NCBI GenBank assembly: GCA_965199915.1
Contig: OZ241348.1
Coordinates: 4,622,414-4,686,413, forward strand
Source of the DNA: Candidatus Azotimanducaceae bacterium
GTDB taxonomy: Bacteria > Pseudomonadota > Gammaproteobacteria > Pseudomonadales > Azotimanducaceae
Length of the DNA: 64,000 nucleotides
Direction: 5' to 3'
The translations under genes and the position numbers were made by a program. Below the pieces are notes generated by a model. It did not search any database. It saw nothing but the letters and a program-made list of their open reading frames with translations, and had not been told where the DNA came from. Shown one piece after another: positions 6,897 to 25,442 of the stretch. How positions within the stretch are numbered: the first letter of the stretch is position 1; every line of letters starts with the position of its first letter.

Positions 6897-8336
6897 ATGA
6901 GCTGGGAAAGCGTGATCGGCTTGGAAGTGCATGTGCAGCTGTACACGCGCTCCAAACTGTTCTCCGGCGCCGCCACGGCGTTCGGTGCAGCCCCGAACAC
7001 GCAGGCGTGCGCGGTGGATCTGGCGTTGCCGGGCGTGTTGCCGACGCTGAACGCCGAGGCGGTGCGCATGGCGGTGCTGTTCGGCGTGGCCGTGGGCGGG
7101 CAGGTTGCCAAGCGCTGCCGCTTCGACCGCAAAAACTACTTCTACCCGGACTTGCCCAAGGGCTACCAGATCAGCCAACTGCGAGAGCCCATCGTGCGCG
7201 GCGGCCAACTGGAAATCGACGGCGCGGACGGCCCGCGCCGCATCGCGCTCACCCGCGCCCACTTGGAGGAGGACGCCGGCAAGTCGCTGCACGAGGACTA
7301 CGCCGGCCACACGGGCATCGACCTCAACCGCGCCGGAGTGCCGCTCTTGGAGGTTGTCAGCGAACCGGAATTGCGCGCGCCCGCGGAGGCGGCGACCTAC
7401 TTTCGCGCCTTGCACACGCTGGTGCGCCATCTCGGCATCTCGGACGGCAACCTGCAGGAAGGTTCGCTGCGTTGCGACGCCAACGTTTCGGTGCGGCGGC
7501 CCGGCGCGGCACTCGGCGAGCGCACGGAGATCAAGAACCTGAACTCCTTTCGCTTCTTGGAGAAGGCGCTGCGCCACGAGATCCGCCGGCAGATCGACCT
7601 GCTCGAATCCGGCGGCGCGGTGCGGCGGCAAACGCTGCTTTACGACGCCGAACGCGACGAGACGCGGCCCATGCGCGGCAAGGAGCTCTCGGACGACTAC
7701 CGCTATTTCCCCGATCCGGACTTGCTGCCGGTGGCCGTCACCGCGGAAATGCTGGAAGACGCAAAGGCGAAACTGCCGGAGCTGCCAACAGCCAAGCGGC
7801 GGCGCTACGTTGCCGAATATCGTTTGGCCGATGACGACGCGGCGCGGCTAGTCGCCGATCCGGACACCGCGGCGTATTTCGAGGCCGTGGCGCGGGCGTG
7901 CGGCAACCCGAAGGCGGCCGCGAACTGGACGATGGGCGAGGTCGCAGCCGCGCAGCGCCAAGACGGTGTGGCCGCCGCGGACATTCCGATCGCGCCGCCG
8001 GTGCTGGCGCGCCTCATCGACCGCCTGGCCGATCAGACGATCTCCGGCAATTCCGCCAAGACGTTGTTCGAGGGGTTGTGGCGCAGCGGCAGCGACCGCG
8101 CGGACGAGGTGGACCGCCGCATTCGCGGCGAAGGGCTCGAACAGCTAAGCGACGGCGGCGCGCTCGACGCCCTGGTGCGCGAGGTGCTCGTCGCCAACCC
8201 CGCGCAGGTGGAGCAATACCGCGCCGGCCGCGAAAAGCTGCTCGGCTACTTCGTCGGCCAAGTGATGAAAGCGAGCCAAGGCAAGGCCAACCCGCGCCAA
8301 GTACACGCGCTCTTGCGCGAGGCGCTTTCTGGCTGA
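6897..8336 (+). CDS. gatB: Asp/Glu-tRNA amidotransferase subunit B
   Basis: 479 aa. MSWESVIGLEVHVQL ... RCDANVSVR ... EIKNLNSFR are typical GatB motifs. Confidence 0.97.
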   Translation: MSWESVIGLEVHVQLYTRSKLFSGAATAFGAAPNTQACAVDLALPGVLPTLNAEAVRMAVLFGVAVGGQVAKRCRFDRKNYFYPDLPKGYQISQLREPIVRGGQLEIDGADGPRRIALTRAHLEEDAGKSLHEDYAGHTGIDLNRAGVPLLEVVSEPELRAPAEAATYFRALHTLVRHLGISDGNLQEGSLRCDANVSVRRPGAALGERTEIKNLNSFRFLEKALRHEIRRQIDLLESGGAVRRQTLLYDAERDETRPMRGKELSDDYRYFPDPDLLPVAVTAEMLEDAKAKLPELPTAKRRRYVAEYRLADDDAARLVADPDTAAYFEAVARACGNPKAAANWTMGEVAAAQRQDGVAAADIPIAPPVLARLIDRLADQTISGNSAKTLFEGLWRSGSDRADEVDRRIRGEGLEQLSDGGALDALVREVLVANPAQVEQYRAGREKLLGYFVGQVMKASQGKANPRQVHALLREALSG

Positions 8337-8370
8337 CTCGAGCGGGCGCCGGGCAAATCCGAGGACATCC

Positions 8371-8425: not shown

Positions 8426-8427
8426 CG

Positions 8428-8480: not shown

Positions 8481-8509
8481 GGCTTCAACGCCAACCGCAT
8501 TTCCTCACG

Positions 8510-9175: not shown

Positions 9176-9553
9176 GTCTTCTCCTTCAATGCGCACCCTA
9201 GGCGGGCGGGGGCATGTTCGACGCTGCTCGTAGTTGCTACGACCACGCCAAACATCCTCATGCAATGAAACCCCCATCCGTTCTTGCCTGTCAAGTGTTT
9301 GTTTAATCTCAGGTTGGGCTCGTGGATGCGTTGCGGCGGCTGATCGATCCGGCGACGCGGTGGAACCGTCAGGGCCGCGGCTGTGGGCGGCGCTGAGCCC
9401 GGCGCGGCTGTCGGAGGCGCTGGTGAAGGAGTGGGCCGGAGGCCGTTCGCCTCACAAGGTAGTAGGGTCGCGCCGTGCGAACCGGCGGACGCCCGCCGCT
9501 GGTTCCCCGTGCCGGCCAAAGGAGGACCGAGTGAACGATCGCAAGCGCCACGC

Positions 9554-9615
9554 GGCGAGATCGCCGCGCAGCACCAAGACGGTGTGGCCACCGCGGACAT
9601 TCCGATTGCGCCGCC
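9554..9615 (+). repeat. degenerate 62-nt copy of an internal gatB segment (partner 7935..7999)
   Basis: ggcgagatcgccgcgcagcaccaagacggtgtggccaccgcggacattccgattgcgccgcc versus gatB ggcgaggtcgcagccgcgcagcgccaagacggtgtggccgccgcggacattccgatcgcgccgcc. Four substitutions and one 3-nt gap by eye. Encodes EIAAQHQDGVATADIPIAPP versus gatB EVAAAQRQDGVAAADIPIAPP. Confidence 0.8.
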
Positions 9616-9725
9616 TTGGCTGGACATTGACGGTCAGGTGCGACAAGCATAGGGTTTGACCAACTTGGTCGTAGAGGCGATGGGGCGTGGCAAACCGCAT
9701 GCAACAGGAGCCTTCCCGCGCATCG

Positions 9726-9980
9726 ATGCCGGTGTGGAAGCTGGGGGAGGCAAAAACGAAGCTGAGCAAGGTCGTGCGCCTCGCTGCGGCGGGTCGGCCG
9801 CAGCAAGTGACCGTGAGTGGCCGCCCTGCGGTGGTGGTGGTCTCGACCGACGAGTTCGACAGGCTCCGCGCTGCCAGCGTCGCACGGACGCTGCACGAAC
9901 TCCTGTCGCGGTCGCCGCTGAATCGCGTGGAGTTCGAGCGCGAACCCATCCAAGGGCCAGTGCGCGAGGTGGACATTTGA
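9726..9980 (+). CDS. Phd/YefM-type antitoxin
   Basis: MPVWKLGEAKTKLSKVVRLAAAGRPQQVTVSGRPAVVVVSTDEFDRL is the typical Phd/YefM N-terminal pattern. Its stop overlaps the start of the vapC-like gene. Confidence 0.8.
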   Translation: MPVWKLGEAKTKLSKVVRLAAAGRPQQVTVSGRPAVVVVSTDEFDRLRAASVARTLHELLSRSPLNRVEFEREPIQGPVREVDI

Positions 9981-10428
9981 GCGGGTGGTTGGTGGACACC
10001 AACGTCGTGTCCGAGTTGCGCAAGACCAACCCAACCCGACAGTGAAGGCTTGGTCTGACGCGCAGGCGTCGCACAGGTTCTTTCTGAGCACGGTTACCCT
10101 TGCGGAAATCCGCTATGGCATCGAACGTCAGCAAGACGCGGCGCTGCACGAGCAACTGAGCCTGTGGCTCGATCTGGAACTTCGGCCATGGTTCGCCGGC
10201 CGAATACTCGCCATTGACGAGGAAGTGCTTCTTGAGTGGCGACGCATGGTGGTGTCCGGGCGGTCGCGCGGCATCATCTTCAGCCATCCGGACGTGTTCA
10301 TTGCTGCAACGGCGCGGGTGCATGGCTTGGCCGTATGCACACGCGACGAGCGCGGCTTCCAAAGCGCGGGCATTTCCGTCCTGAATCCTTGGCGCATGTT
10401 CGCAACCCCGGGTTCCGGCAACGATTAG
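9977..10428 (+). pseudogene. vapC: VapC-type PIN-domain toxin, disrupted by a 1-nt frameshift
   Basis: Frame A from TTG 9977 gives SGWLVDTNVVSELRKTNPTRQ-stop (10043..10045). Frame B continues PNPTVKAWSDAQAS ... LAEIRYG ... FIAATARVHGLAVCTRDERGF to 10428. The switch lies in the aaccc-aaccc repeat at 10028..10037, consistent with a missing base. Confidence 0.8.
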
Positions 10429-10437: not shown

Positions 10438-11028
10438 GTGGGCAATGCAGTGGACGAACTGGTGTCAAGCACGGGCGGAGCGCAGCGTCCCTTGACCCGC
10501 GAAGAGCCGCGAGCACAAGAATTGCCACGAAAACCACCACCCGCCGAATCCCTTGCCGCCATCGCGGCCGGCATCCGGCAGGCCGCCACGCTCTACTACC
10601 AGTTGCTGCTGGTGGTGGGGCGCAGCGGAGCGGGCAAGACGCAAGCCTTGACGTCCGCAAGCAAGCCCGCCGGTGCCCTCGTGGTCAACGTGGGCTTGGA
10701 ACTCGCATCGCGTCTGCTCGAACGAACAACGCGGCAACGCCGCTTGGAGGTGCAGGGATTCCTTGAGGAGCTTGTTGCGACCGCCAGCGCGGCCAGCGGT
10801 GTGGCGCTGCTGGACAACATCGAGGTGCTGTTCGATGCCGATCTGCGACAGGACCCGCTCCGCTTGCTGCAAGCCGTCTCGCGCAACAGGACGGTGGTTG
10901 CCGCGTGGCCGGGGACGCTGCGCGGCGGCACGCTGCGCTATGCTCCGCCCCCACACCGCGAGTATCGAGAGTATCCGGCGCATGGCCTGTTGACGGTGGC
11001 GCTCGAACACGGCGACGAAACACCATGA
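10438..11028 (+). CDS. brxF: BREX type 3 P-loop protein BrxF-like
   Basis: 196 aa with Walker [14 protein letters not shown]. It is a small ATPase immediately upstream of, and overlapping (ATGA), the brxC-like gene. Confidence 0.7.
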
Positions 11029-14000
11029 AATACCGTGAACTGATTCAATTCGAGCCCATCGAGTCCGTGGTGCAGCTGCGCAACGCGAACCGTGCGGAGC
11101 ACGCCCGACGGCTGGTTGAGACCTACGTCGTTTCCGACGAAATGGCGGAGCGGCTAGCCAACCTAGCCATCCCCCACCTCCAGTTCGACCGGCCGGCGGA
11201 CAACAAGGGCCTCTTGGTGGTGGGCAACTACGGCACCGGCAAGTCGCACCTGATGTCCGTGGTTTCGGCGGTGGCGGAGAACGGCGACTTCGCAGCTTGC
11301 GTTGGCCAGGCGGAAGCGGCGGCCGCGCTGGCGCTAGTCGCCGGCAGATTCCAAGTGGTGCGCACCGAGATCGGCGCTTCCACCATGTCGTTGCGGGACA
11401 TTCTGACCGGCGAGCTGGAGCAGGGGTTGGAACGGGCGGGCGTGGAATACCGCTTTCCGCCCACCAGCCAAGTGGTGTCCAACAAGCACTGCTTTGAGGA
11501 GATGATGTCCGCGTTCCACCGCGCGTTCCCGGACCAGGGCCTGCTGCTGGTGGTGGACGAACTTCTGGACTATTTGCGCTCGCGCAAGGATCAGGAGCTC
11601 ATCTTGGACTTGAACTTCCTGCGCGAAATCGGCGAAGCGTGCAAAGACCTGCGCCTGCGCTTCATGGCCGGCGTGCAAGAGGCCATCTTCGACAACGAAC
11701 GCCTTGCCTTCGCCGCCGACTCCCTGCGCCGCGTGCAGGATCGCTTCGCGCAGATCGTCATCGCCAAGAGCGACGTGAAGTTCGTGGTGGCCGAACGGCT
11801 GCTGCGAAAGACCGCCGAGCAGCAAGCGAAGATACGCGACTATCTGACGCCGTTCGGGAAGTTCTACGAGCGCTTGAACGAAGGCATGGACGAGTATGTG
11901 CGCTTGTTCCCCGTCCATCCGCAGTACATCGACACTTTCGAGCGCGTGGCGGCTGCGGAAAAGCGCGAGGCTCTGCGCACGCTCTCCAATACCATGAAGG
12001 GGATGCTGGATGCCCATGTGCCCAACGACCACCCGGGTCTCATCGCCTACGACAGCTATTGGGGAAACCTGATCGGCAACCCGGCGTTCCGCGCCGTGCC
12101 GGACATCAAGGCCGTGATGGATTGCAGCGAGACGCTGGAAGGGCGCGTGCAGCAAGCGTTCACGCGCCCGGCGTACAAGCCGATGGCGTTGCGGCTGATC
12201 CATGCGCTTTCCGTGCATCGCCTGACGCAGAACGACATCCACGCCGCCCTGGGCGCCACCGCCAAGGAACTGCGCGACGGTCTGTGCCTGTACCAGCCGG
12301 GCATCGAGGACCTGGGCGGCGACCCCGCCGACGATTTGCTCACCCAAGTGGAAACCGTGCTCCGCGAAATCCACCGTACGGTGAACGGCCAGTTCATTTC
12401 CTCCAATGCGCACAATGGCCAGTTCTACTTGGATTTGCAGAAGACGGACGACTTCGACGCCCACATCGAGCGCCGCGCCGAGAGCCTGGACGCCTCAAAG
12501 CTGGACCGCTACTACTATGTGGCGCTGTGCCAGCTCATGGAGTGCTCGGACGAAACGTACGTGACCGGCTTCAACATCTGGGAACACGAGCTCACTTGGC
12601 TTGAGCGCAAGGCGGCGCGCAACGGCTACTTGTTCTTCGGCGCTCCGAACGAGCGATCCACGGCGGTGCCGCCGCGGGATTTCTACCTCTACTTCGTCCA
12701 GCCCTTCGAGCCGCCACGCTTCAAGGACGAACAGAAGGCCGACGAGGTCTTCTTCCATCTCGCCGGCATGGATGAGGACTTTCGCCAACCGCTACGCGCC
12801 TACGCCGCTGCTCTGGACCTCGCGGCGACATCCTCTGGCCACGCCAAGCACACTTACGAAAACAAGGCGGCCGAATCCCTGCGCGAACTGGTGAAGTGGT
12901 TGCGAACGCACATGGCGCAAGCGTTTCGCGTCACCCACCGAGGCCGTGCGCGGGCCATGCTTGATTGGGCCCGAGGCGGCAGGTCGTTGCGCGAACTGTC
13001 CGCAACCCCGGACGACGAACGCATCAACTTCCGCGACTTGGTGAACACCATCGCCGGCATCTGCCTGGCCCCCCACTTCGAGGATCAAGCGCCCGACTAC
13101 CCCGTGTTCTCGGTACACATCACCGGCGGCAACCGCGCTCAAGCCGCTCAAGACGCTCTACGCGCCATCGCCGGCCAGCATCGCAGCCGTCAGGCGACGG
13201 CAATTCTCGATGCCCTGGAACTGCTCGACGGCGACCGGCTAGCGCCGGAAAACTCGAAGTACGCCCAACACATCCTCAACGCGATGGCGGAAAAGGGGCA
13301 TGGTCGCGTGTTGAACCGGGTCGAGTTGATTCGCGACGAGCTCGGCGTGGAATACATGGCCCCGTCGCGGTTGCGGTTGGAACCGGAATGGGTGGCGGTG
13401 GTGTTGGCCACGCTCGTCTATTCCGGCCATGTGGTGTTGGCCACCACCGGCCGGAAGTTCGACGCGGTTGGATTGCCACAGTTGGCAGCCGTTGCCATCA
13501 GCGATCTGACCAGCTTCAAGCACATCGAGCGCCCCAAGGAGTGGAACCTGCCGGCATTGACCGCCCTCTTCGAGTTGCTCGAACTGGCGCCGGGGATGGC
13601 CCAGCTCATCACCCAAGGCAAGGACGAGCCGGTGCAGCAAATGCAGAAAGCGGCTGGCGCGACGGTTGAACAGCTGGTGGTCGCCGGCCAGCACCTGCGC
13701 GATGGCTTCGTATTCTGGGGCCGAACCTTGCTGACCGAAGACGAAGCCAAGCTACTGCACAGCCGGCTTGACAACGCCAAGGCGTTCCTGGAAGCGCTGC
13801 AACCCTACAACTCGCCCGGCAAGCTGAAGAACTTCCGCTACGAGGCCCAAGAGGTCGCCGCGCATCGCGACGGTTTTCAAGCCCTGCAGGAGGCGCAAGC
13901 GCTCGCCACGTTGTGCGCCGATCTGGGCACGCTGGCGTCCTATCTCGCAACTGCCGAAGCCGGATTGCCGACGGAGGGCAACTGGGCGGCCAAGGTGAAA

Positions 14001-14753
14001 GCCGCCAAGAACGACATCGCCGCCCAACTCGGCGATCCGAAGGCGCGGTCCGCCCCCAACTTCCGGCAGCAGACCAAACGCCGCCTTCTGCAACTCAAGG
14101 CGGAGTATGTGCGGGACTACTTGGCCCAGCACACGAGAGCGCGCCTTGGTGTGGAGGGCGACGAGCGCAAAGCGAAGCTGCTCGGCGATGTACGCTTGCG
14201 AACGCTGCAGCGCCTGACCGCCATCGACTTGATGCCGGAGCAGCATCTGAACAGCTGGCTCCGCCGGATCGTCGAGCTCGAGAGCTGTTTCGCGCTGACC
14301 GAGCAGGACTTGCAAGCCGCCCCGGCGTGCCCGCATTGCGGCTTCAAGGCAGGCACGGGGTCTGGCCCTTCCGCGGAGGCGATGCTCACCGGCTTGGACG
14401 CCGAGCTCGATGCCTTGACGGATGCTTGGACGCAAACGCTCTTGGCCAACTTGGACGACCCCGCGGCCAGGGCCAGCATGACGTTGCTGGAATCCGACGC
14501 GGCCAACTTGGTGGCCGAGTTCGCCCAAGCCGGCCGCTTGCCGGGCGAAGTAGGCGACGACTTCGTGCAAGCCTTGAAGGATGTGCTCTCCGGCCTAGAG
14601 AAGGTCTCGGTGACCACCGAGAGCCTCCGCGCCGCCCTGCTCGCCGGCGGCGTGCCCGCCAAACCGGAGGAGATGAAGCAGCGCTTCGGTGCGTATGTGG
14701 ACGGGTTGGTGAAGGGCAAGACGCCCAGCAAGACGCGGATTGTGGTGGAATAG
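11025..14753 (+). CDS. brxC: BREX ATPase BrxC/PglY-like (DUF6079-type)
   Basis: 1242 aa from ATG 11025. [38 protein letters not shown] ... [16 protein letters not shown] (Walker A). Size and N-terminal pattern are typical of BREX BrxC. Confidence 0.8.
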
Positions 14754-14757
14754 CCAC

Positions 14758-16668
14758 ATGACCCGTGAAGAGCTAGTCGAGCGCCTGCGGAAATACGAGT
14801 GGTCGGACATCGAGTTCAAGCAAGCTCGCCGAGGCGTTCCACAGGACGCCTACAAGACCGTTTCCGCATTCGCCAACACCGCTGGCGGCTGGCTTGTGTT
14901 TGGCGTCCGCGACTCCAGCGGCACCTTGGATGTGGTTGGCGTGGTGGAAGTGGACAAGGTGCAGAACGACTTCCTGAGCACCCTCCGGGCTGGCAACAAG
15001 CTGAACCGCGTGATCGCGGTGGACGAGCAAGCCGAGGAAATGGATGGCAAGACCTTGCTGGTGTTCCACGTTCCCGAGTCGCCGAGGGGCGACAAGCCGG
15101 TCTACCTCGGCGGCGACATTCGCGAGTCCTACATCCGTCGCGGCGCTGGCGACGAGCGTTGCACGATGCCGGAGATCGAGCGGTTCCTGCGCGATGCCGC
15201 CGCCGACTACGACGGCCAAGTGGTGGACTTGGACGCCGAGCGGTTCTTCGACCCCGATTCCCTGGGTTGGTATCGCCGCGTATTCGACGATCGCAATCCC
15301 GGCCGGCGACGAGAGCTGCCGGACATGGAGTTCCTGCACGAGTGGGGCTTTGTCGTCGAGCGTGGCGGCCGTCTCGCGCCTACGCTGGCGGCGGTGTTGG
15401 TGTTGGGCAGAGGGCGCTATGTGCGCCAAGTCTTGCACCGGCCGGTGGTGGATTGCCAGTTCATCGACTCTACTTTCGATGCTTGGCCGCCCGATCTGCG
15501 CTGGAGCGATCGCGTCGTGGTCGAGGAAAACTTGGTGCAGGCATGGCTCATACTTTCCGAGCGCTATGTGCGGCGGGCCGACCGCCCGTTCCGCATCGAC
15601 CCGGCGACGCTGCGGCGCGATGACGACCCGCCGGACTACATATCCTTCCGGGAGTCGGCCATCAACCTGCTGCTCCATCAGGACTACGGCGATCAGGGGC
15701 GGCACGCCAGCATCCGTCTGTTTCGGGATCGGATGGAGTTCCGCAATCCAGGGGACGCCTTCGCGACCATAGATGAGCTCTTGGAACCCGGCGCCAAGGA
15801 CGAGCGTAATCCGAAAATCGTCGCGGCGTTCCGCCGGCTAGGCCTGAGCGAACAGGCAGGCGCCGGCATCCGGGCGATTTTCCGCAACTGGCAGGCGTTG
15901 GGCCATGTGCCACCGATGATCGACAACGACAAGACGAAAAAAGCCTTTGAGGTATGCCTCGTACGGGAAACGCTGCTGAGCGAGGAGCAACGTCTCTTCC
16001 AGTCCCGCTTGGGGCTGCGCTTGAACGACGCGCAAGCGCGGGTGTTCGCCTTTGCCTGCCGTCAGGGGCGCGTTTCGCTTGTTGACGCGAAGGCGGTGAC
16101 AGGGTGGAGCGGTGCGGAAGCATCCGCCACCTTGGAGGCGCTCCAAGTGCAGAGCGTGTTGCAGCCCCTGCAGGAGGGGTCGTACAGACTTGCGGAGCAC
16201 CTTGAAGGGCATGCCGACCTCCCGCTGCTTGGTCAGTCCGAGAGTGACCAAGTACGCGGCAGCCCCAGCGACTTAGGCAGTGACTTGGTCACTGACCCAC
16301 CTGACGCAGTGGACATCGATGCCATGTCCACTGCACAAGTAGCCCATAGGCCAAGCTCCATGTCCACTGAACATGGGAGCGATGTTCACATGCCGGCTGC
16401 CGCACTTTCCGACATCCAATGGCGCATCGTGGCCTCTTGCGACGTGCCCCGCCTGCTGGCCGAGATCATGGATGATCTCGGTGTCGTCAACCGCGGCTAC
16501 TTCAAGAAAACGCACCTAGACCCGTTGATCCGCGCAGGCTTCATCGCCTTGACGAATCCGGCCCAGCCGCGAGCGCCCAGCCAGCGGTACATGCTGACCG
16601 AGGCCGGGGTGGAGTTGAAGACATCCCGCCTCCTCCTCACAGGCGATGAGAACGTTGGCCCAGACTGA
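14758..16668 (+). CDS. AlbA_2/Schlafen-type putative DNA-binding protein with RecG-C-terminal-like (HATPase_c_4) and winged-helix regions
   Basis: EWSDIEFKQARRGVP ... SAFANTAGGWLVFGVRD (AlbA_2 pattern). ERNPKIVAAFRRLGLSEQAGAGIRAI (HATPase_c_4-like). C-terminal KKTHLDPLIRAGFIALTNP..SQRYMLTEAG (wHTH-like). Starts 5 nt after the brxC stop. Confidence 0.65.
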   Translation: MTREELVERLRKYEWSDIEFKQARRGVPQDAYKTVSAFANTAGGWLVFGVRDSSGTLDVVGVVEVDKVQNDFLSTLRAGNKLNRVIAVDEQAEEMDGKTLLVFHVPESPRGDKPVYLGGDIRESYIRRGAGDERCTMPEIERFLRDAAADYDGQVVDLDAERFFDPDSLGWYRRVFDDRNPGRRRELPDMEFLHEWGFVVERGGRLAPTLAAVLVLGRGRYVRQVLHRPVVDCQFIDSTFDAWPPDLRWSDRVVVEENLVQAWLILSERYVRRADRPFRIDPATLRRDDDPPDYISFRESAINLLLHQDYGDQGRHASIRLFRDRMEFRNPGDAFATIDELLEPGAKDERNPKIVAAFRRLGLSEQAGAGIRAIFRNWQALGHVPPMIDNDKTKKAFEVCLVRETLLSEEQRLFQSRLGLRLNDAQARVFAFACRQGRVSLVDAKAVTGWSGAEASATLEALQVQSVLQPLQEGSYRLAEHLEGHADLPLLGQSESDQVRGSPSDLGSDLVTDPPDAVDIDAMSTAQVAHRPSSMSTEHGSDVHMPAAALSDIQWRIVASCDVPRLLAEIMDDLGVVNRGYFKKTHLDPLIRAGFIALTNPAQPRAPSQRYMLTEAGVELKTSRLLLTGDENVGPD

Positions 16669-19444
16669 AGATTCCAGCCTGTTGCCCGATGCGCCAACCG
16701 CGGACCGAAAGGGCCCCGTCGAGTGCTTCGGCATGATGTTCGACTCCGACGATGACCGGCGGAGCTATTTCCTCGCCCGACTGAAGGCGAAACTCCCCGA
16801 CTTGCGGCAGCGCACGGACTTTCCCATCGGCGAAGACGAGGACATCCTGCGCCTTTCGGACCCGCCCTACTACACGGCCTGCCCCAACCCGTTCCTCGCC
16901 GAGTTCGTGGAACACCACGGCAAGCCCTACGACCCCGACGAGCCGTACCATCGGGAGCCTTTCGCCGTGGACGTGAGCGTGGGCAAGACCGATCCGCTCT
17001 ACAAGGCCCACGGCTACCACACCAAGGTGCCCCACCGCGCCATCGTGCCGTCCATCCTCCACTACACGGTGCCGGGCGACGTTGTGCTCGATGGCTTCTG
17101 CGGATCCGGGATGACTGGCGTTGCCGCCCAATGGTGCGGCACGGCGCCGCGCGAATACCGCATGGAGTTGGAGCAGCAGTGGAGGAAGGAGGGCCGGCAA
17201 CCGCCCAAGTGGGGCGCTCGGCGAGCTATTCTCGGCGACCTCTCCCCGGCTGCCACCTTCATTGCCGCCAACTACAACATTCCCTTTGACGTGGATGCGT
17301 TCGCAGACGCCGCGCAGAAGCTCTTGGACGACGTCGAGGAAGAGATCGGCTGGATGTACGAGACGCAGCACACGGACGGGAAGACGAAGGGGCGGATCCG
17401 CTACACCGTATGGAGCGAGTGCTTTACCTGCCCGGCGTGCGCGGAAGAAATCGTGTACACCGAACAAGCGCTTGACAGCGCCACCGGTAGGATAAAACCT
17501 GCGTTCCCGTGCCCCAATTGTGGTGCCACATTGACGAAGAGGCAGCTCAATCGTTCCTATTTGTCCACCCGCGACGCCGCGCTCGGCAACGTGGTGAAGA
17601 CGACGAAACGAGTACCCGTTTCCATCGTCTACGCCGCGAATGGCCAAGTTTGCGCGAAGGCACCGGACGAGGGCGATGTGGCAAGGCTGCGCGAGATCGA
17701 GGACCTGCCGGTTCCGGCTGACCTCCCGGTGGACGCGATGATGCACAAGCCGGCTGGAGAAGTTTGGGGGGACCAATGGCGAAAGGGCGTGTCGTCATTT
17801 ACGCATGTTCACCACCTGTTCCTACCGCGTGCGCAACATTCCCTCTCGGCAATATGGCGGCGCGCGACCGAGTGCCCAGACAACCGACAACGAAACATGC
17901 TCCTGTTTCTAACGGAGCAGGCAATTGTTGGCATGTCGTTGCAGAACAGGTACGGACCCTTGCACTATTCGCAAGTCAACCGCCACATGGCCGGCCGTGT
18001 GCAGGTCAGCTCCCAGCACTCCGAACCAACGCCCTGGTATGTGCTTGGCGGAAAGCTAGGGCGCTTGACGAAGACTTTTCGACAAAACCCGTTCCACGAC
18101 GCCACAATTGGATTGACGACCGCGGACTGTTCCAATCTGCCCCTCCTCGACAATTCGGTGGATTATGTTTTCACCGATCCCCCCTTCGGCGACAATTTGG
18201 CCTACAGCGAGCTCAATTTCCTCAACGAATCCTTTCTGCGCGCCTTCACGCGAAACAAGCCGGAAGCCATCGTCAGCCGAACGCAGCGGAAGGACGCCGC
18301 CGCCTATCAGCGCCTCATGCAACGCTGCTTCCAAGAGTGTCAACGAGTGCTCAAGCCGGGCCGCTGGATGACGCTGGTCTTCCACAATTCGAGAAACGCC
18401 ATCTGGAACGCCGTCCAAGAGGCCATGATGGCCGCCGGCTTCGTCGTCGCCGACGTCAGAGTTCTGGACAAGCGGCAGGGGACGTTCAACCAAGTCAAGG
18501 CGTCCCAAGCCGTCAAGCAGGACCTCGTGATCTCCGCCTACAAGCCGAACGGCGGCCTGGAGAAGAGATTCCAGCTAGCGGCCGGCACTGAGGAAGGCGT
18601 TTGGGACTTCGTCCGCACGCATCTCGGTCGCCTTCCTTTGTTCGTGGAGAGAGATGGCAGCGTGGAGGTCGTGTCGGAGCGCCAAGACTACCTCTTGTAC
18701 GACCGCATGGTCGCCTTCCACGTCCTGCGCGGTGTCACCGTGCCGCTGTCCGCCGCCGAGTTCTACGAGGCCCTCCGCCAACGCTTCGCGCAGCGAGACG
18801 GCATGTGCTTTCTTCCGGAGCAAGTCGTCGAGTACGACCGCAGGCGCGCAAAAGCAAACGGCGTACTGCAGCTCGAACTCTTTGTCAAAGACGAAGAGAC
18901 GGCGATCCAGTGGCTGCGCCACCAACTCGACAAGAAGCCGCAGACCTTCCAGGACATCCACCCCGCCTACATCCAAGAGCTCGGCGGCTGGGCCAAACAC
19001 GAGAAGATGCTGGAACTCTCCCGCCTGCTCAAGGAAAACTTCCTCCACTACGACGGCACCGGCGAAGTGCCCCCGCAGATCCACACCTACCTCTCGACCA
19101 ACTTCAAGGACCTTCGCAACCTCTCGAAGGACGCCCTCGCCCTCCGAACCAAGGCGAAGGCTCGCTGGTACGTCCCGGACCCCCACAAAGCCGCCGATTT
19201 GGAGAAGCTCCGCGAACGCACGCTGCTTCGCGAGTTCGCGGAGTACCAAAACGCAGACCTGCGCCGCCTCAAGGTCTTCCGCTTGGAAGCCATCCGCGCC
19301 GGCTTCCGCCGCGCCTGGCAGGAACAAGACTACGCCACGATCGTTGCCGTGGGCGGGAAGATCCCCAGCGGCGTCATCCAAGAGGATCCGAAGCTCCTCA
19401 TGTGGCTAGACCAAGCGACTGTTCGCCAAGAACAGGCAGTGTAG
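16646..19444 (+). CDS. pglX: BREX methyltransferase PglXI-like (N6/N4 DNA methylase)
   Basis: 932 aa. SAM-binding motif VLDGFCGSGMTGVAA and catalytic VDYVFTDPPFGDNLAY. Start is uncertain: it overlaps the previous gene by 23 nt, with an alternative ATG near 16733. Confidence 0.8.
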   Translation: MRTLAQTEDSSLLPDAPTADRKGPVECFGMMFDSDDDRRSYFLARLKAKLPDLRQRTDFPIGEDEDILRLSDPPYYTACPNPFLAEFVEHHGKPYDPDEPYHREPFAVDVSVGKTDPLYKAHGYHTKVPHRAIVPSILHYTVPGDVVLDGFCGSGMTGVAAQWCGTAPREYRMELEQQWRKEGRQPPKWGARRAILGDLSPAATFIAANYNIPFDVDAFADAAQKLLDDVEEEIGWMYETQHTDGKTKGRIRYTVWSECFTCPACAEEIVYTEQALDSATGRIKPAFPCPNCGATLTKRQLNRSYLSTRDAALGNVVKTTKRVPVSIVYAANGQVCAKAPDEGDVARLREIEDLPVPADLPVDAMMHKPAGEVWGDQWRKGVSSFTHVHHLFLPRAQHSLSAIWRRATECPDNRQRNMLLFLTEQAIVGMSLQNRYGPLHYSQVNRHMAGRVQVSSQHSEPTPWYVLGGKLGRLTKTFRQNPFHDATIGLTTADCSNLPLLDNSVDYVFTDPPFGDNLAYSELNFLNESFLRAFTRNKPEAIVSRTQRKDAAAYQRLMQRCFQECQRVLKPGRWMTLVFHNSRNAIWNAVQEAMMAAGFVVADVRVLDKRQGTFNQVKASQAVKQDLVISAYKPNGGLEKRFQLAAGTEEGVWDFVRTHLGRLPLFVERDGSVEVVSERQDYLLYDRMVAFHVLRGVTVPLSAAEFYEALRQRFAQRDGMCFLPEQVVEYDRRRAKANGVLQLELFVKDEETAIQWLRHQLDKKPQTFQDIHPAYIQELGGWAKHEKMLELSRLLKENFLHYDGTGEVPPQIHTYLSTNFKDLRNLSKDALALRTKAKARWYVPDPHKAADLEKLRERTLLREFAEYQNADLRRLKVFRLEAIRAGFRRAWQEQDYATIVAVGGKIPSGVIQEDPKLLMWLDQATVRQEQAV

Positions 19445-19446
19445 TC

Positions 19447-19920
19447 ATGGTGCCTGAACCGAGCGTAACCGCGCTTTCGCCTAACGACGTGTCGGACGTT
19501 GAGGCGCTCCGGGCTATGAACAACGAGACCTTGGGCTTCATGGCTATGTCAGTAATCGAAGGCTACCTGAGAAAGGGCGGCGGAGTTGGCATTCGGGGCG
19601 ATGATGGCCTTCGTGGCTATGCCCTCTACGCAGTTCACCGCCATCATGTTCGGCTCATCCACCTCTGCGTCGCAGACCAATACCGGGGTTCGAGTTATGC
19701 AGAGCGCCTTACCGATGCGGTAGTTGATGCAGCGAAGCAGGCGAGGGTCGGCACCGTCAAGCTGACCAAGCATCCATCGCGAAAGGGTTGCAGGCGGACT
19801 TTGTCACCGGTGCTCTTGAGCTGTACATTGCAAAAGAGGTGTTCAATGAGATTAATCGAGCCGGGTCAGACCAACGTGCGCGGTCGCGGGACATCGCGCG
19901 AGCTTATCCTCATCAACTGA
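19447..19920 (+). CDS. GNAT-like N-acetyltransferase domain protein
   Basis: ATG 2 nt after the pglX stop. RLIHLCVADQYRGSSYAERLTDAVVDAAKQ resembles GNAT motif A (Q-x-x-G-x-S/A). The C-terminal 50 aa look non-GNAT and overlap the next ORF, so a frameshift or fusion is possible. Confidence 0.5.
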   Translation: MVPEPSVTALSPNDVSDVEALRAMNNETLGFMAMSVIEGYLRKGGGVGIRGDDGLRGYALYAVHRHHVRLIHLCVADQYRGSSYAERLTDAVVDAAKQARVGTVKLTKHPSRKGCRRTLSPVLLSCTLQKRCSMRLIEPGQTNVRGRGTSRELILIN

Positions 19921-19937
19921 CTCACGATGCTGGCAAA

Positions 19938-21242
19938 ATGCAGGCCGTGGTGAAGCGCCTAGAGAGCATTCTACCGTCAGATCGGCCCAGCGAAGAGTCT
20001 GATATACGGCAGTTGGCCATGACAGCCACCTCAGACGTTTACATATTTCTGACGCGAGACGAGGGCATTCTAAATAGAGCTGCACAGATCAAGTGCGTGG
20101 CGTCCGTGGATGTCATGCATCCAGATGAGCTGATCGTTCGCCTAGATCAGTTCACCGACAGCGACGCCTACCAGCCCGTAGCGGTGTCTGGATCGAACCT
20201 TGGTTGGCGACGGGTGGTAGCCAATGAAGTGGCGAAGTTTCGTAGCGGGGACGACCTCTTGGGGACGCACGAGAAGAAGTGGCGTTACAAGAGGCAGTTG
20301 GACAAAGCGCTGAGCCACCCGAAGATTTGGCGAACCGAGGCGCTTTGGTCCGAAGACAGGTTGCTAGCCTTGCGTAGCCTGCGGTGCGATGGCGGTCGTC
20401 TGGTGGCGGGCCTTTGTCGGGCCTCGCGGGGCAGAGCCCAAGAGATGTTCACTGAGTACGCCGCCGCAACCCTCATACATGAGGCAGTCAGCCGTGGCTG
20501 CCTTGCTGTGGAAATAGAGCCGCACGGTGCAGTGCCAGAAGCGAGAATGCAGTTGACGCGCCTAGGGTTCGCGGACGACGGTGGCAGGCTTGTGCGGATG
20601 TGCCCTGCGGCTGTCATGTCGGCAGTAGACCTTCGAGAGGCCGCTGCTGCTGTGGCCGACAGCACGAGCTTGGAGGAACTGGAGAGACTATGCTCGCCTG
20701 TTGCCTTGCGAGATGGCCACACGGAATGTCTATTGGTGCCCATCAAGCCAGGCTACGCTAGGGCGCTGTTCAACACGAGACGGGCCGCGGGCGACCTTTT
20801 TGGTGCCGACGAGAAGGTGCTCCTTCGATGGGAGAACGTCTACTTTCGGAAGAAAAACCAACACCGCATGATCCAAGCACCGGCGCGGATATTGTGGTAC
20901 GAGAGTAACAGCCAAGGAGTCGTAGCCGTCTCCCACCTTGACGATGTGGAAATCGGGCAGCCAAAGGACGTGTTCTACAACAACAGGTCGTTGGGAACGC
21001 TCAGCTGGCAGGAAATCCAAGAAATGTGCGGTGGCGGTCGAGTTCAGGGTGTTCAAGACATAATGGCGCTTCGGTTTTCGCACACCCATCTGTTTCGATC
21101 TTCGGTGAGTTTCGCGGCCCTCAAAGATGTCTACGGCAGCCACAATTTGAAGAACCCCGTGGTTCAATCGCCATCACGGGTGCCGCGAGCGGTGTTTTTA
21201 GACATCTTTCGTCTGGGGTTTCCGGCGCAGGCATCGGCATGA
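19938..21242 (+). CDS. multidomain protein with C-terminal ASCH/PUA-like domain (N-terminal and central regions of uncertain family)
   Basis: Track ORF opens at 19788 (TTG). The first ATG, at 19938, lies just after the GNAT ORF stop. The C-terminal region LLVPIKPGYARALFN ... ARILWYES ... GVVAVSHLDDVEIGQPKDVF ... ALRFSHTHLF parallels the ASCH pattern of the next gene. The N-terminal DIRQLAMTATSDVYIFLTRDEGIL resembles the last strand-helix of PIN-like folds. Confidence 0.45.
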   Translation: MQAVVKRLESILPSDRPSEESDIRQLAMTATSDVYIFLTRDEGILNRAAQIKCVASVDVMHPDELIVRLDQFTDSDAYQPVAVSGSNLGWRRVVANEVAKFRSGDDLLGTHEKKWRYKRQLDKALSHPKIWRTEALWSEDRLLALRSLRCDGGRLVAGLCRASRGRAQEMFTEYAAATLIHEAVSRGCLAVEIEPHGAVPEARMQLTRLGFADDGGRLVRMCPAAVMSAVDLREAAAAVADSTSLEELERLCSPVALRDGHTECLLVPIKPGYARALFNTRRAAGDLFGADEKVLLRWENVYFRKKNQHRMIQAPARILWYESNSQGVVAVSHLDDVEIGQPKDVFYNNRSLGTLSWQEIQEMCGGGRVQGVQDIMALRFSHTHLFRSSVSFAALKDVYGSHNLKNPVVQSPSRVPRAVFLDIFRLGFPAQASA

Positions 21243-21712
21243 AGCCGCTGCTTCTGTCGCTCAAGCCTGTGTATGCGGATTTGGTATTCAGTGGCTTGAA
21301 GACTGCTGAGTTGCGGCGATGGATGCCGCGGGAAGTAAAGGGCCGGGACGTTTTCATCTATGTCTCCAGCCCGGAGAGAGTGCTTAGAGGGGGGTTCAGA
21401 GTGGCCGATGTCTGGCAGGGTGCGCCAAAAGACGTCTGGCATCGAGTAAAGGACTTGGCGAAGGTTGACGCGAGCACCTACAACGCCTATTACCAAGGGC
21501 GATCGACGGCCTTCGCCCTAAGCATCGCGGATGCGTGGGAATATAAGCATCCGCTTGCCTTGGAAGAATTGCGGCGCAAGTTCGGGAACTTTGTTGTACC
21601 CCAATCGTGGCGATATCTGACGCCTTGTGAGCGTCGGTCTTTCGGCAAGATGAAGCGCGTGCCAATAGACACAGCGGAGAGCGCGGAATGCTCGAAGCGA
21701 GCTGCGGCATGA
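21239..21712 (+). CDS. ASCH domain protein (PUA-like fold, COG4933-type)
   Basis: MKPLLLSLKPVYADLVFSGLKTAELRR ... DVFIYVSSPERVLRGGFRVADVWQGAPKDVW ... FVVPQSWRYL matches the recurrent ASCH pattern. ATGA overlap with the upstream gene. Confidence 0.65.
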   Translation: MKPLLLSLKPVYADLVFSGLKTAELRRWMPREVKGRDVFIYVSSPERVLRGGFRVADVWQGAPKDVWHRVKDLAKVDASTYNAYYQGRSTAFALSIADAWEYKHPLALEELRRKFGNFVVPQSWRYLTPCERRSFGKMKRVPIDTAESAECSKRAAA

Positions 21713-21736
21713 TCGGTTGGCACATGCGAGTCGCCC

Positions 21737-23737
21737 ATGCCTCACGAGCGTAGCTGGCAAGACTCCGTTCTCGACGAGTTCACGCCCGGCCTCTCGCCCA
21801 TCACCATCGTCTCCGATCCTGACGGGCTCTTGTGCAACGAGGGTCTCCTAGCCGCTTTGCGCGAACGGCGCTTCGCCCTGCTTCCGTTCGAAGACCCCGT
21901 CGCCTTTCGCTACGCCTACGAGTCGCGCTACCGCCCGCTGTTGCGGAGTGCGGACGCGGCAGGCCTCGTGGTTTGCGTAGCTGGCCCTCCCGCTGCGCTG
22001 GACGATCTCCCCTACGACATCCTCGCGAGGGCCCGTCGCGTGTCGCTCAGTTTGGCGGCGCTGTTCCCTCGGCTGGATCAGGCGGTGTTGCGCACGTTGG
22101 CCCCGCACGATTGGGAGGCGCTCCACCTCGCTAAGGCCCGCTTCACCCCAACCGCAGCCCTCGGCGAATCCGCGACCAAGGATTTCGTCTTGCGACACGT
22201 CTTCGGCATCCAGCCGGAGCTGTTGTCTTCGGCGGCGGCGTTGCTGGCGGCCCTCTTGCGTCGTCACTATCCCGCTCGGCGCATACCAACGACTCTGAAC
22301 GAGCGCATCGTTCAAGTCCTCCGTGCGCGGTTCCAAGATTGGCCGCTCGAACGCATCGTGCCGGATCGGGCGGCGTTCCTCGGCTTCCTGCAAGAGCGCT
22401 GGCCGATCTTCTTGAACGCCCAGGCCGATGGGGCTGGCACAGTAAGAGAAGGCGAGGGCCTCGCCTACCTTGGACCCGCGCTATTGCCTTTCGAGCACGC
22501 GGACGTGCGCGTCTACATGGACAACCTGTTCGCGGAGGGATTGCTTTGTCCCGTGGTCCACTGGCGTGCGAACGCGCTCGGCAAGACGTGGCTTGGCGTC
22601 GGTGTGCGTTCGGAGCCGCAAGCGGATCGCAATCGGCAGCTGGATCGGCTGCTCGCCATCGCACTGAAAGCCCTGCCGGAGCCAAACGCGCACCACGAGC
22701 GTTGGGCCCACTTCGCCAGCGTCTGGGCGAACGTGTTGGCGCTAACGCACGAGACCGGCCATCGGCCAAACGCAAGCCACCAGCACCAAGTGGACGCTCT
22801 GCGAACGCGCATGGACGCGGCGTTCGCCGATTGGCTTGGCGGCCGCTACAGCGGGCTTGCCAATCTGCCGCCCACACCGCCGGTGATGCTGCACCACATT
22901 CCCCGCTTTCTGGCACGGGAGATCGGCGATGCCGCGAAGGATGCGCCCAAGAAAGCCGCATTGATCGTGGTGGACGGGTTGGCACTCGATCAATGGGCCG
23001 TCATGCGGCGGGAACTCGGCGAGCAGCGTCCCGGCTGGCGGTTCCGCGAGCAGGCCGTGTTCGCATGGGTTCCCACCGTCACATCGGTCTCGCGCCAAGC
23101 CATCTTCGCCGGAACCCCGCCGTTTCTGTTCCCGAGGAGCATCCACCACACCAACAAGGAGGAAGCGCTGTGGCGGCGCTTCTGGGGCGACGAGAACATA
23201 GACCAAGTTGGGTATTTGAAGGGCTTGGGCGACCGGCCCTTTGACGACGTTGCCGCACTCATCGATCCGCCCCACATGCGCGTCGTCGGCTTGGTGGTGG
23301 ACAAAGTGGATCGCATCATGCACGGCATGGAGCTCGGCACCGCCGGCATGCACAACCAAGTGCGCCAGTGGGCAGCGCTCGGCCACTTCGCAGCGCTTCT
23401 GGATCTGCTGTTCGCAAACGGATTCCGCGTCTACCTCACCGCCGATCACGGCAACATCGAAGCCACCGGCTGCGGCCGGCCGAACGAAGGCGCAGTGGCG
23501 GATCTTCGGGGCGAACGTGTGCGTGTCTACTCCGACGAAGGCTTGCGCGGGCCGGTTGCCGAGCGCTTTCCCGAAGCGTGGCAATGGCCCGCGGATGGCC
23601 TGCCGGTGGATTATCTGCCGTTGCTGGCGCCCGGCCGTTTCGCCTTCGTGGGCGAAGGCGAGCGCGTGGTGGCGCACGGCGGCGTCTGCCTCGAGGAGCT
23701 CGTCGTGCCGTTCGTGGAAGTGGCGGTCGGGCGCTGA
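21737..23737 (+). CDS. pglZ: BREX alkaline-phosphatase-family protein PglZ
   Basis: 666 aa. LIVVDGLALDQWAVM and YLTADHGNIEA are PglZ-domain motifs. Confidence 0.85.
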   Translation: MPHERSWQDSVLDEFTPGLSPITIVSDPDGLLCNEGLLAALRERRFALLPFEDPVAFRYAYESRYRPLLRSADAAGLVVCVAGPPAALDDLPYDILARARRVSLSLAALFPRLDQAVLRTLAPHDWEALHLAKARFTPTAALGESATKDFVLRHVFGIQPELLSSAAALLAALLRRHYPARRIPTTLNERIVQVLRARFQDWPLERIVPDRAAFLGFLQERWPIFLNAQADGAGTVREGEGLAYLGPALLPFEHADVRVYMDNLFAEGLLCPVVHWRANALGKTWLGVGVRSEPQADRNRQLDRLLAIALKALPEPNAHHERWAHFASVWANVLALTHETGHRPNASHQHQVDALRTRMDAAFADWLGGRYSGLANLPPTPPVMLHHIPRFLAREIGDAAKDAPKKAALIVVDGLALDQWAVMRRELGEQRPGWRFREQAVFAWVPTVTSVSRQAIFAGTPPFLFPRSIHHTNKEEALWRRFWGDENIDQVGYLKGLGDRPFDDVAALIDPPHMRVVGLVVDKVDRIMHGMELGTAGMHNQVRQWAALGHFAALLDLLFANGFRVYLTADHGNIEATGCGRPNEGAVADLRGERVRVYSDEGLRGPVAERFPEAWQWPADGLPVDYLPLLAPGRFAFVGEGERVVAHGGVCLEELVVPFVEVAVGR

Positions 23738-23742
23738 AGACC

Positions 23743-24480
23743 ATGGGCAACCAAGTGGGCATCAGCCAGCGCATTCGCTTGGAGTGGCTGGAAGCAACCG
23801 CCAACCTCGTCTTGGCGGGCCAAGACAAAGAGGCCATTCAACGCGCCTTGAACGAGATGCTGGTGGACAAGCTCTCGGTGAACAGCCGCGCTGTGCGGGG
23901 CAGCCGCCACAAGACCGTCACCATCCTTGCGAAGATCTGGCGCAGTGTGCCGCCGGAACTGAAGGCGCTGCGCGACGACGGCTTGGAACGCCTGCCCGCG
24001 CTGGATTCCGTCCATCGCCAAGCCATCCACTGGGGCATGACCATCGCCGCCTATCCGTTCTGGGGCGTCGTGGCGGCGCAGACCGGACGCTTGCTGCGCT
24101 TGCAGAGCACCGCCAGCGCCGCCCAGGTTCAGCGCCGAGTGCGGGAACGGCACGGCGAGCGGCAAACCGTGTCGCGCGCCACCGCCCGCGTGCTGCGGTC
24201 GTTCGTTGATTGGGGCGTTCTTGAGGACACGAAAGCCAAGGGCGTGTACGTCGCGGGCAAACGGGGAGAGATCACGGACCCGCACGTTGCCGCGTGGTTG
24301 GCCGAGGCGTTGCTGCGCTCGAACGTCGGCGGCGGCAAGCCGAGCGCTGTGCTGCGCCACCCGAGCTTGTTTCCCTTTCAACTGCCGCGCGTTGGCGCCG
24401 GCCAGCTAGCGGCCCGGTCGAGCCGGTTGGAAGCGGTGCGCCAGGGGCTGGACGGAGAAGCGTTGCTGCTCCGCAACTGA
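23743..24480 (+). CDS. brxA: BrxA-like (DUF1819-like) terminal BREX protein
   Basis: 245 aa from ATG 23743, 6 nt after the pglZ stop. The helical protein is in the position of brxA in type 3 BREX. Assignment is by position and general pattern only. Confidence 0.45.
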   Translation: MGNQVGISQRIRLEWLEATANLVLAGQDKEAIQRALNEMLVDKLSVNSRAVRGSRHKTVTILAKIWRSVPPELKALRDDGLERLPALDSVHRQAIHWGMTIAAYPFWGVVAAQTGRLLRLQSTASAAQVQRRVRERHGERQTVSRATARVLRSFVDWGVLEDTKAKGVYVAGKRGEITDPHVAAWLAEALLRSNVGGGKPSAVLRHPSLFPFQLPRVGAGQLAARSSRLEAVRQGLDGEALLLRN

Positions 24481-24533: not shown

Positions 24534-25442
24534 ATGTCCGCTCGCGCGCTCACGCATCTTGAGCAGTTGGAAGCCGAGAGCATTCACATCATCCGCGAGG
24601 TGGCGGCGGAGTTCGAGCGTCCGGTGCTGCTTTATTCCATCGGCAAGGACTCCTCCGTGCTGCTGCACTTGGCGCGCAAGGCGTTTTTCCCCGGCCCGCT
24701 GCCCTTCCCCCTGTTGCACGTGGACACCACTTGGAAGTTCCGCGACATGATCGCCTTTCGCGACCGCATCGCGCGCGAGTTCGCCTTGAACCTCATCGTC
24801 CACACGAACGAGGAGGGCCGCGCCGCCGGCGTGAGCCCGTTCACCCATGGCAGCCGCCGCTACACGGACATCATGAAAACCGAAGCGCTCAAAACGGCGT
24901 TGGAAAAGCACCGCTTCGACGCCTGCTTCGGCGGCGCGCGCCGGGACGAAGAGGCGTCGCGCGCCAAGGAGCGCGTGTTCTCCGTGCGCGACCGTAACCA
25001 CCGCTGGGATCCGAAAAACCAACGCCCGGAGCTGTGGAGCCTGTACAACGGCCGCATCAATCCGGGCGAGGAAGTGCGCGTGTTTCCGCTCTCCAACTGG
25101 ACCGAGCTGGACGTGTGGCAATACGTGCACCTGCAGAACATCGACATCGTGCCGCTGTACTTCGCCGCCATGCGCCCGGTGGTGGAACGCGACGGCATGC
25201 TCATCATGGTGGACGACGAGCGCATGGAATTGGCCGCCGGCGAGACGCCGCGGATGCGTTCTGTGCGCTTCCGCACGCTCGGCTGCTACCCCCTCTCCGG
25301 CGCCATCGAGTCACGCGCCGCCACCGTGCCGGAGATCATCTTGGAGATGCTGGCCGCCAAACACTCCGAGCGCCAAGGCCGCCTGATCGACCACGACGCG
25401 AGCGGCTCCATGGAACGCAAGAAACGCGAGGGCTATTTCTGA
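24534..25442 (+). CDS. cysD: sulfate adenylyltransferase subunit 2
   Basis: [36 protein letters not shown] ... PAPS-reductase fold motifs, 302 aa. Confidence 0.96.

Follow-up and report, generated by a model that had tools for sequence, protein, structure and literature searches.

Can a bacteriophage exclusion (BREX) operon of type 3 do without its helicase, or do the genes lodged within it stand in for the missing part? The question is raised by contig OZ241348.1 (assembly GCA_965199915.1, positions 4,622,414 to 4,686,413) of a Candidatus Azotimanducaceae bacterium, a 64,000-nt stretch that is called the window here. An earlier sequence-only reading of the window described a BREX type 3-like operon of nine genes that lacks the BrxHII helicase and carries four extra genes, and proposed that the helicase role is dispensable or taken over by other components. 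The type 3 gene set, as restated in PMC12839542 (NAR 2026), is brxF-brxC-pglXI-brxHII-pglZ-brxA. We favor, with a probability of about 0.72, the view that the locus encodes an intact type 3 BREX system whose lineage lost BrxHII, and that its gene junctions are loaded with independent defence cargo which does not substitute for the helicase.

The core of the BREX type 3 system is intact. All five core proteins, BrxF, BrxC, PglXI, PglZ and BrxA, match type 3 profiles end to end (Table 1), and the profile searches with PADLOC, Pfam and NCBIfam bore out the core gene names given earlier. The motifs cited for these genes were all found again in the translations, including GRSGAGKT, FCGSGMTG, TDPPFG and TADHGNIE. 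PglXI has the type 3 arrangement of motif I (FCGSGMTG), an internal target-recognition domain (TRD) and a DPPF motif (in TDPPFG), and PglZ belongs to the type 3 subfamily (NCBIfam BREX_PglZ_3, 725.5 bits against a cut-off of 250). The true start of brxF is probably further downstream than 10438 because homologues are ~164 aa long (164 aa in the close relative L026). Core proteins enlarged by compensating domains were also considered and were ruled out by the end-to-end matches and normal lengths.

The genes form a tight co-directional array on the + strand at 10438-24480, as read from the open reading frames (ORFs) and their translations. ATGA overlaps occur at 11025-11028 and 21239-21242, pglXI overlaps the gene before it by 23 nt (16646-16668), and the remaining junctions are gaps of 2-24 nt. 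Nine co-directional ORFs with overlapping or abutting junctions are therefore present as described, but the ancestral genes number eight, since the ORFs at 19447-19920 and 19788-21242 are one split gene. The four extra genes likewise proved to be embedded cargo but reduce to three units: a prokaryotic Schlafen (pSlfn) gene, one disrupted GNAT-PIN-GNAT-ASCH gene, and its ASCH partner.

The absence of BrxHII was confirmed. No helicase domain was identified by Pfam or PADLOC in any of the nine operon ORFs, and the window's 10 largest ORFs outside the operon, which include an insertion sequence (IS) transposase and metabolic or transport genes, have none either. Two verified BrxHII proteins, from the related loci L013 and L015, produced no tblastn match in the whole 64-kb window, so the Swi2/Snf2 helicase that lies between pglXI and pglZ in type 3 systems is missing from it. 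The HATPase_c_4 domain of the Schlafen gene, which Pfam labels 'putative helicase recG C-terminal', was rejected as a helicase match. The label is misleading, since the fold is that of a GHKL/histidine-kinase-like ATPase, and the domain is called a (minimal) histidine kinase in PMC12839542 and in bioRxiv 10.1101/2025.07.24.666596. A survey counted BrxHII in 77% of type 3 systems (702 taxa) and did not analyse the loci that lack it (PMC12839542). The helicase is thus a common but not a universal feature of type 3.

Related loci were compared with the window (WIN) and numbered L001-L038. A scan of a genome collection with PglXI generated 25 loci, all in metagenome-assembled genomes (MAGs), with 48-75% identity in the best tblastn segment. 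These loci come from Pseudomonadales, other Gammaproteobacteria, Acidobacteriota, Planctomycetota, Verrucomicrobiota and others. A metagenome scan with PglZ added only 8 loci, mostly short and distant, which were used as an outgroup and did not enlarge the helicase-less clade. When the window proteins were mapped onto the loci a common frame emerged, BrxF-BrxC-junction 1-PglXI-junction 2-PglZ-BrxA. Junction 1 is the BrxC-PglXI interval; junction 2 is the PglXI-PglZ interval, or the region just 3' of PglXI where no PglZ was in view.

BrxHII of the relatives is a ~930-aa Swi2/Snf2 protein (PADLOC PDLC02500, E=0, full length; Pfam SNF2-rel_dom and Helicase_C). It lies directly upstream of pglZ in L003, L005, L013, L015 and L021, and is also present in L011, where it is truncated, and L014, neither of which has pglZ in view. 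All other loci of the PglXI scan lack it within up to ~10 kb on either side of PglXI (less at contig ends). Trees of BrxC, PglZ and BrxA agree in placing the window in a clade without any BrxHII, together with L001, L002, L004, L009, L017, L018, L020, L026 and probably L019 and L022. The sister clade is mixed for BrxHII. In four distant metagenome loci (L029, L031, L032 and L034; PglZ 40-47% identical) the order is the canonical BrxHII-PglZ-BrxA, which argues that the helicase-less state of the clade is derived, by loss of BrxHII. Within the clade the ratio of nonsynonymous to synonymous substitution rates (dN/dS) is 0.14-0.27 for BrxC, PglZ and BrxA. These values signify purifying selection, under which the five-gene core appears to have been kept since the loss.

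The closest relatives have the same layout. L037 and L038, from one metagenome, belong to the same species as the window (their DNA is 95-97% identical to it) and share its cysD/cysNC/oxidoreductase flank and its helicase-less gene order, and a fourth close locus, L026, also has this order. Recurrence in these three loci and in a multi-phylum clade marks the layout as a real variant. With no BrxHII within the 64 kb either, a rearrangement or assembly artefact is not supported. Some type 3 relatives are degraded. BrxHII of L003 (4261-6684) has an internal gap and a frame change, that of L011 (16845-17933) is cut down to ~364 aa, and L024 and L025 retain only fragments of PglXI. Loss of BrxHII may pass through degraded intermediates such as L003 and L011.

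If the system works like BREX systems that have been studied, PglXI would methylate host DNA at a non-palindromic motif that its inserted TRD determines, and BrxC, PglZ, BrxA and BrxF would then exclude unmodified phage DNA. Exclusion in the window lineage would proceed without a dedicated superfamily 2 (SF2) motor, and the embedded genes would be co-transcribed passengers or back-up layers. That the clade is a distinct BREX type 3 sub-lineage which excludes phage with BrxF, BrxC, PglXI, PglZ and BrxA only is a tentative proposal, and we regard it as somewhat doubtful.

Several points weigh against an intact, helicase-independent system. No functional data on any type 3 BREX, with or without BrxHII, were found in the searchable literature. 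The trees are quick neighbour-joining distance trees of 20-25 loci, and the comparison loci are nearly all MAGs or metagenome contigs. The helicase search covered 64 kb of a ~4.8-Mb genome, which leaves room for BrxHII in trans. Finally, some decay is under way: both PIN genes of the island, vapC and the GNAT-PIN gene, are broken, and the sibling loci L024 and L025 are degraded.

Decay is the starting point of the alternative that survives best, in which the locus is a remnant that has been reduced to a methylation-only module (epigenetic or an orphan methyltransferase) or is becoming a pseudogene after helicase loss. The vapC frameshift, the GNAT-PIN deletion and the clearly degraded L024 and L025 are what such a remnant predicts, and in type 1 BREX restriction generally depends on the full gene set, whereas part of it is enough for methylation (PMC13326643). 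However, all five core ORFs of the window are full length, and the dN/dS values cover BrxC, PglZ and BrxA rather than the methyltransferase alone. The five-gene set has been kept across deep divergence (BrxA 53-68% identity) and several phyla. A methylation-only role would also leave the conservation of PglZ unexplained, as PglZ is treated as the primary nuclease effector in PMC12839542. We consider a remnant unlikely.

A BrxHII or other BREX-serving helicase encoded elsewhere in the genome and acting in trans is also improbable. Besides the small part of the genome in view, it is favored by a related genome, OY282447.1, which carries two type 3 loci (L004 and L025), so that several loci per genome do occur. 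But the second of these, L025, is also without BrxHII, and no locus of the helicase-less clade has BrxHII within the distance examined around PglXI. BrxHII, where present, is always directly upstream of pglZ, and a trans arrangement kept across several phyla would be unusual.

The contents of the two junctions bear on whether cargo could replace the helicase. Junction 2 is occupied by unrelated defence genes in different relatives (Table 1), and at junction 1 a full-length homologue of the Schlafen gene (gene 3) is present in at least 10 loci. The BrxC-PglXI and PglXI-PglZ junctions appear to act as insertion hotspots for independent defence cargo. Embedding is general in BREX: the PDC candidate systems come from a guilt-by-embedding screen, which drew on cassettes lodged within BREX, DISARM or type I restriction-modification (RM) loci (Payne et al., bioRxiv 10.1101/2024.01.29.577857). 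Functional replacement of BrxHII by the Schlafen or GNAT/PIN/ASCH genes is very improbable. In its favor, these genes lie in or beside the usual BrxHII position, in the same direction and with stops that overlap starts, helicase-less loci often have the Schlafen gene between BrxC and PglXI, and the HATPase_c_4 domain of that gene is an ATP-binding fold. But none of them has a helicase or translocase domain, the PglXI-PglZ slot is empty in helicase-less L009 and L018 and varies in content from locus to locus, L008, L019 and L020 have no Schlafen gene, Schlafen-type genes occur alongside BrxHII in L013 (7355-8818, with the Ex4ExK motif) and L021, which argues that the Schlafen gene is not a helicase substitute, and in both the window and L037 the core is intact although the GNAT-PIN gene is broken.

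An intact type 3 core with independent passengers is the preferred reading. Gene 3 is, on its domain content, a known type of BREX passenger. The Slfn domain has a catalytic signature, Ex4(E/D)xK (Taboada et al., bioRxiv 10.1101/2025.07.24.666596), which in gene 3 reads EWSDIEFK (residues 21-28 when the protein is begun at 14758). Together the Slfn/AlbA_2 domain with this motif, the fused histidine-kinase-like ATPase and the winged helix-turn-helix (wHTH) place it in the HisKinase-HTH class, a fusion that accounts for 19.2% of prokaryotic Schlafens (bioRxiv 10.1101/2025.07.24.666596). At least 1017 taxa have Schlafen-histidine kinase (HisK)-wHTH proteins lodged within BREX or related loci, where they were interpreted as a back-up endoRNase effector (PMC12839542). 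The product of gene 3 is most likely a conditionally activated, abortive-infection tRNase.

The second cargo unit was recognized by comparison with intact relatives. Homologues of the multidomain ORF (gene 6) are mostly 650-700-aa proteins with N-terminal GNAT domains, and in L008 the GNAT domain and the gene 6 homologue belong to a single ORF. The 90% cluster that contains the window fragment includes a full-length 673-aa protein, P0121, encoded by L026, and the 5' fragment of the window aligns to residues 1-107 of P0121 and to L026. The ORFs called GNAT and multidomain are two fragments of one ~670-aa gene. Blastn of the window against L026 gave two colinear alignments that share 13 nt (19755-19767), with 224 nt of L026 missing between them. 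A programmed frameshift between the two ORFs was ruled out by this missing coding sequence. The deletion takes out the GNAT residues C108, R109, D111, W119, F124 and W142, invariant in the family alignment, as well as the first PIN strand with the invariant catalytic D169. The cassette is probably dead in the window genome.

Domains of the full-length protein were assigned on an AlphaFold2 (AF2) model of a 670-aa homologue, P0002, built from a 56-sequence alignment (mean predicted local distance difference test, pLDDT, 88; predicted TM-score, pTM, 0.74) and compared with the PDB using Foldseek. The boundaries are our reading of secondary structure, invariant residues and weak profile hits. The PADLOC profile PDC-M11A matched both the window fragment and intact P0002 only at profile positions 314-458 of 486, which is the ASCH-like end. 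The first ~485 residues of the large protein have no match to this profile, and the similarity to PDC-M11A is not full length. In the annotated loci the start of a short gene overlaps the end of the ~670-aa gene. The cassette is also found beside a type I RM system (L028) and without any annotated defence neighbour (L027), which argues for an autonomous, portable module.

The gene is intact in L038 (5473-7500, 675 aa), and L037 (5707-7500) has an independent in-frame deletion of 78 aa that again removes the catalytic N-terminus of PIN. Independent damage to PIN, twice in one population, hints at a toxic RNase whose inactivation is selected for, and would mark the cassette as a toxic abortive-infection system. 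It is most likely a toxin-like RNase/acetyltransferase module with ASCH reader domains. By analogy with ASCH enzymes such as YqfB, the small ASCH protein may, as a guess, act as an antagonist of the large protein. In L025, ~1.5 kb of extra DNA with a 429-aa ORF lies between the GNAT part and the remainder of the gene.

The cassette of the window (19426-21162) is ~99% identical to the L026 allele, although the genomic context of L026 differs and its BrxC is only 79% identical, and it gives no blastn alignment to the alleles of the otherwise 95-97% identical L037 and L038. This pattern indicates that the embedded allele was probably replaced by recombination within the same slot. PglXI also differs between window and L026. 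Its inserted TRD with a 4-Cys finger, a domain described in PMC12839542, is at ~17300-18500. The TRD is only 46-60% identical to L026 7860-9060, while the DNA on either side (15.2-17.3 kb and 18.8-21.2 kb) is 95-100% identical. The conspecific L037 and L038 share the TRD of the window. The difference from L026 looks like a TRD cassette swap, which would alter the methylation motif.

A phd-vapC pair lies upstream of brxF. Relative to the intact copy in L001, vapC has a 1-nt deletion in an A-run near 10030-10040, and its N-terminal 'LVDTNVVSELRKTNP' is in a different frame from the ORF at 9985-10428. The antitoxin gene is therefore accompanied by a frameshifted rather than an intact PIN toxin. 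The homologous pair of L001 (17100-17852) is inside the PglXI-PglZ slot, with vapC intact in one frame (VapC 73% aa identity).

The BREX island is bounded by housekeeping genes, gatB upstream and cysD downstream. The product of the former, recognised from its translation, we take to be GatB; mreBCD, named from translations, is also upstream. The names at the cysD and cysNC positions are backed by the syntenic genes of L037 and L038 (Pfam PAPS_reduct and GTP_EFTU/APS_kinase). G+C content falls from 0.64-0.70 to 0.59-0.60 across 18-22 kb. No tRNA gene was found in the window, and there is thus no sign of an integration site linked to one. The ~1.3 kb that separate gatB from phd (8336-9687) are gene-poor, with a sole ORF, of 141 aa on the minus strand (8510-8935), that is membrane-protein-like. 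An IS element at 28745-30382 (DDE_Tnp_1_4 transposase ORF 28898-30355) is specific to the window, and L037 and L038 align continuously across the site without it. In these two loci the region 14705-16766, 3' of cysNC and an oxidoreductase gene and corresponding to ~30.4-32.9 kb of the window, encodes a protein with a ScoMcrA-like DNA-sulfur-binding domain and HNH, a methyltransferase, a DUF3800 protein and a PIN/DUF6364 pair. This neighbourhood of the BREX genes in L037 and L038 hints at a wider defence island.

Table 1. Features of the window, domains of the full-length GNAT-PIN-GNAT-ASCH protein, and junction contents of related loci.
Feature	Position or locus	Strand	Evidence or content
gatA	5367-6830		Upstream of gatB; name read from translation
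gatB	6897..8336	+	Upstream housekeeping boundary
phd-family (VapB-like) antitoxin	9687..9980	+	NCBIfam TIGR01552 phd_fam 42.4 bits (cut-off 20.8)
vapC-like PIN toxin, frameshifted	9977..10428 (start approximate)	+	Pfam PIN 6.5e-10 for ORF 9985-10428
brxF (P-loop, GRSGAGKT)	10438..11028	+	PADLOC BrxF 1.8e-46; NCBIfam BREX_3_BrxF 163 bits (cut-off 50)
brxC/pglY ATPase, 1242 aa	11025..14753	+	Pfam DUF6079 over 1-1242, E=0; PADLOC PDLC02482 full length, E=0
Prokaryotic Schlafen gene (gene 3)	14758..16668	+	Pfam SLFN_AlbA_2 3.9e-17; HATPase_c_4 2.9e-15 (residues 314-399); Fic-like_C wHTH 1.2e-08 (568-614)
pglXI (BrxXI) adenine methyltransferase	16646..19444	+	PADLOC PglXI E=0, 10-930 vs 4-918 of 919; Pfam N6_N4_Mtase
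5' fragment, GNAT domain without C-terminal part	19447..19767	+	Weak Pfam GNAT; ORF continues out of frame to 19920
224-nt frameshifting deletion junction, TGAC microhomology	19755..19767	+	blastn vs L026
3' fragment: PIN without strand 1, second GNAT-like, C-terminal ASCH-like	19768..21242 (ORF 19788-21242)	+	98.8% aa identity to L026
Stand-alone ASCH partner, 157 aa	21239..21712	+	Pfam ASCH 9.8e-06; PADLOC PDC-M11B (PDLC04425) 4e-27, 4-128 vs 3-123 of 132
pglZ (alkaline-phosphatase-superfamily BREX effector)	21737..23737	+	Pfam PglZ 2.4e-24; PADLOC 1.6e-252 full length
brxA (DNA-binding)	23743..24480	+	PADLOC BrxA 5e-90, 3-244 vs 6-248 of 251
cysD	24534..25442	+	Downstream boundary, followed by cysNC; name read from translation
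GNAT domain	~residues 1-150		Foldseek best matches Ard1 (4pv6), RimI
PIN domain	~residues 163-300		Invariant D169, E206, E210, D261, D280; Pfam PIN_3 in distant members
Second GNAT-like domain	~residues 320-480		Weak profile hits only
ASCH-like C-terminal domain	~residues 490-670		Zymomonas ASCH 5gus, TM-score ~0.8 on target
Junction 1	L011		ABC/OLD-type ATPase, read only from N-terminal P-loop sequence
Junction 1	L006, L016		vapC
Junction 2	L009		Empty (89 nt)
Junction 2	L018		Empty (~0.4 kb)
Junction 2	L002, L004		SIR2-HerA
Junction 2	L007		PDC-S19
Junction 2	L017		ThsA/SIR2-like gene
Junction 2	L019		HEC-03B-like AAA_15 ATPase
Junction 2	L020		PDC-S28 (DinG-like)
Junction 2	L021		Ppl and Schlafen paralogue, upstream of BrxHII
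Junction 2	L014		Gabija, upstream of BrxHII
Junction 2	L006		Class II prokaryotic Argonaute (pAgo), 3' of PglXI (no PglZ in view)
Junction 2	L001		C5 methyltransferase and phd-vapC pair
Junction 2	L008, L024, L025, L026, L037, L038		Same GNAT/ASCH cassette as window

The architecture is a recurring variant, but it is less new than was assumed. That BrxHII is missing from about a quarter of type 3 loci and that cargo, including Schlafen-HisK-wHTH genes, is embedded in BREX are already published (PMC12839542; Payne et al., bioRxiv 10.1101/2024.01.29.577857). What is added here is that the absence of BrxHII is clade-wide, apparently derived and associated with purifying selection; that two type 3 junctions can be defined as candidate cargo hotspots; and that the cargo includes a predicted GNAT-PIN-GNAT-ASCH architecture with recurrent PIN deletions, beside an apparent TRD swap in PglXI. 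The window locus does not overturn current views and is a well-supported, fairly ordinary example. A conserved helicase-less lineage offers a natural minimal system for asking what the helicase or motor contributes to the BREX mechanism. If five genes do exclude phage, a dedicated motor or helicase (BrxL, BrxHI or BrxHII) would not be intrinsically required for BREX exclusion. Natural controls are at hand in close relatives with BrxHII and in relatives with empty or differently filled slots, and these could distinguish a motor that is needed from one that modulates. The locus also supplies material on two defence candidates, Schlafen-HisK-wHTH and the GNAT-PIN-GNAT-ASCH/ASCH cassette, the latter with intact and naturally inactivated alleles in the same population.

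Compared with canonical BREX type 3, the window has BrxF, a DUF6079-type BrxC, PglXI with an internal TRD, a type 3 PglZ and BrxA, in the same order and at full length; it differs in having no BrxHII, which places it within the remaining 23% of PMC12839542. Gene 3 shares with the HisKinase-HTH class of pSlfns its domain set, the Ex4ExK motif and a place inside a BREX operon, whereas the pSlfns shown to defend are DUF262 and Ig-like fusions, of another architecture (bioRxiv 10.1101/2025.07.24.666596). PDC-M11 (A+B) resembles the second cargo unit as a two-gene BREX-embedded cassette with a near end-to-end PDC-M11B match and a shared C-terminal ASCH-like domain. In contrast, the large protein of the window is a ~670-aa GNAT-PIN-GNAT-ASCH fusion split by a deletion, and PDC-M11 is a candidate system only. 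BrxU/GmrSD in pEFER and PARIS in type 1 BREX are, like the cargo of the window, co-oriented defence genes nested between core genes in a variable slot. Those examples are from type 1 BREX, whereas the hotspots of the window are the BrxC-PglXI and PglXI-PglZ junctions of type 3.

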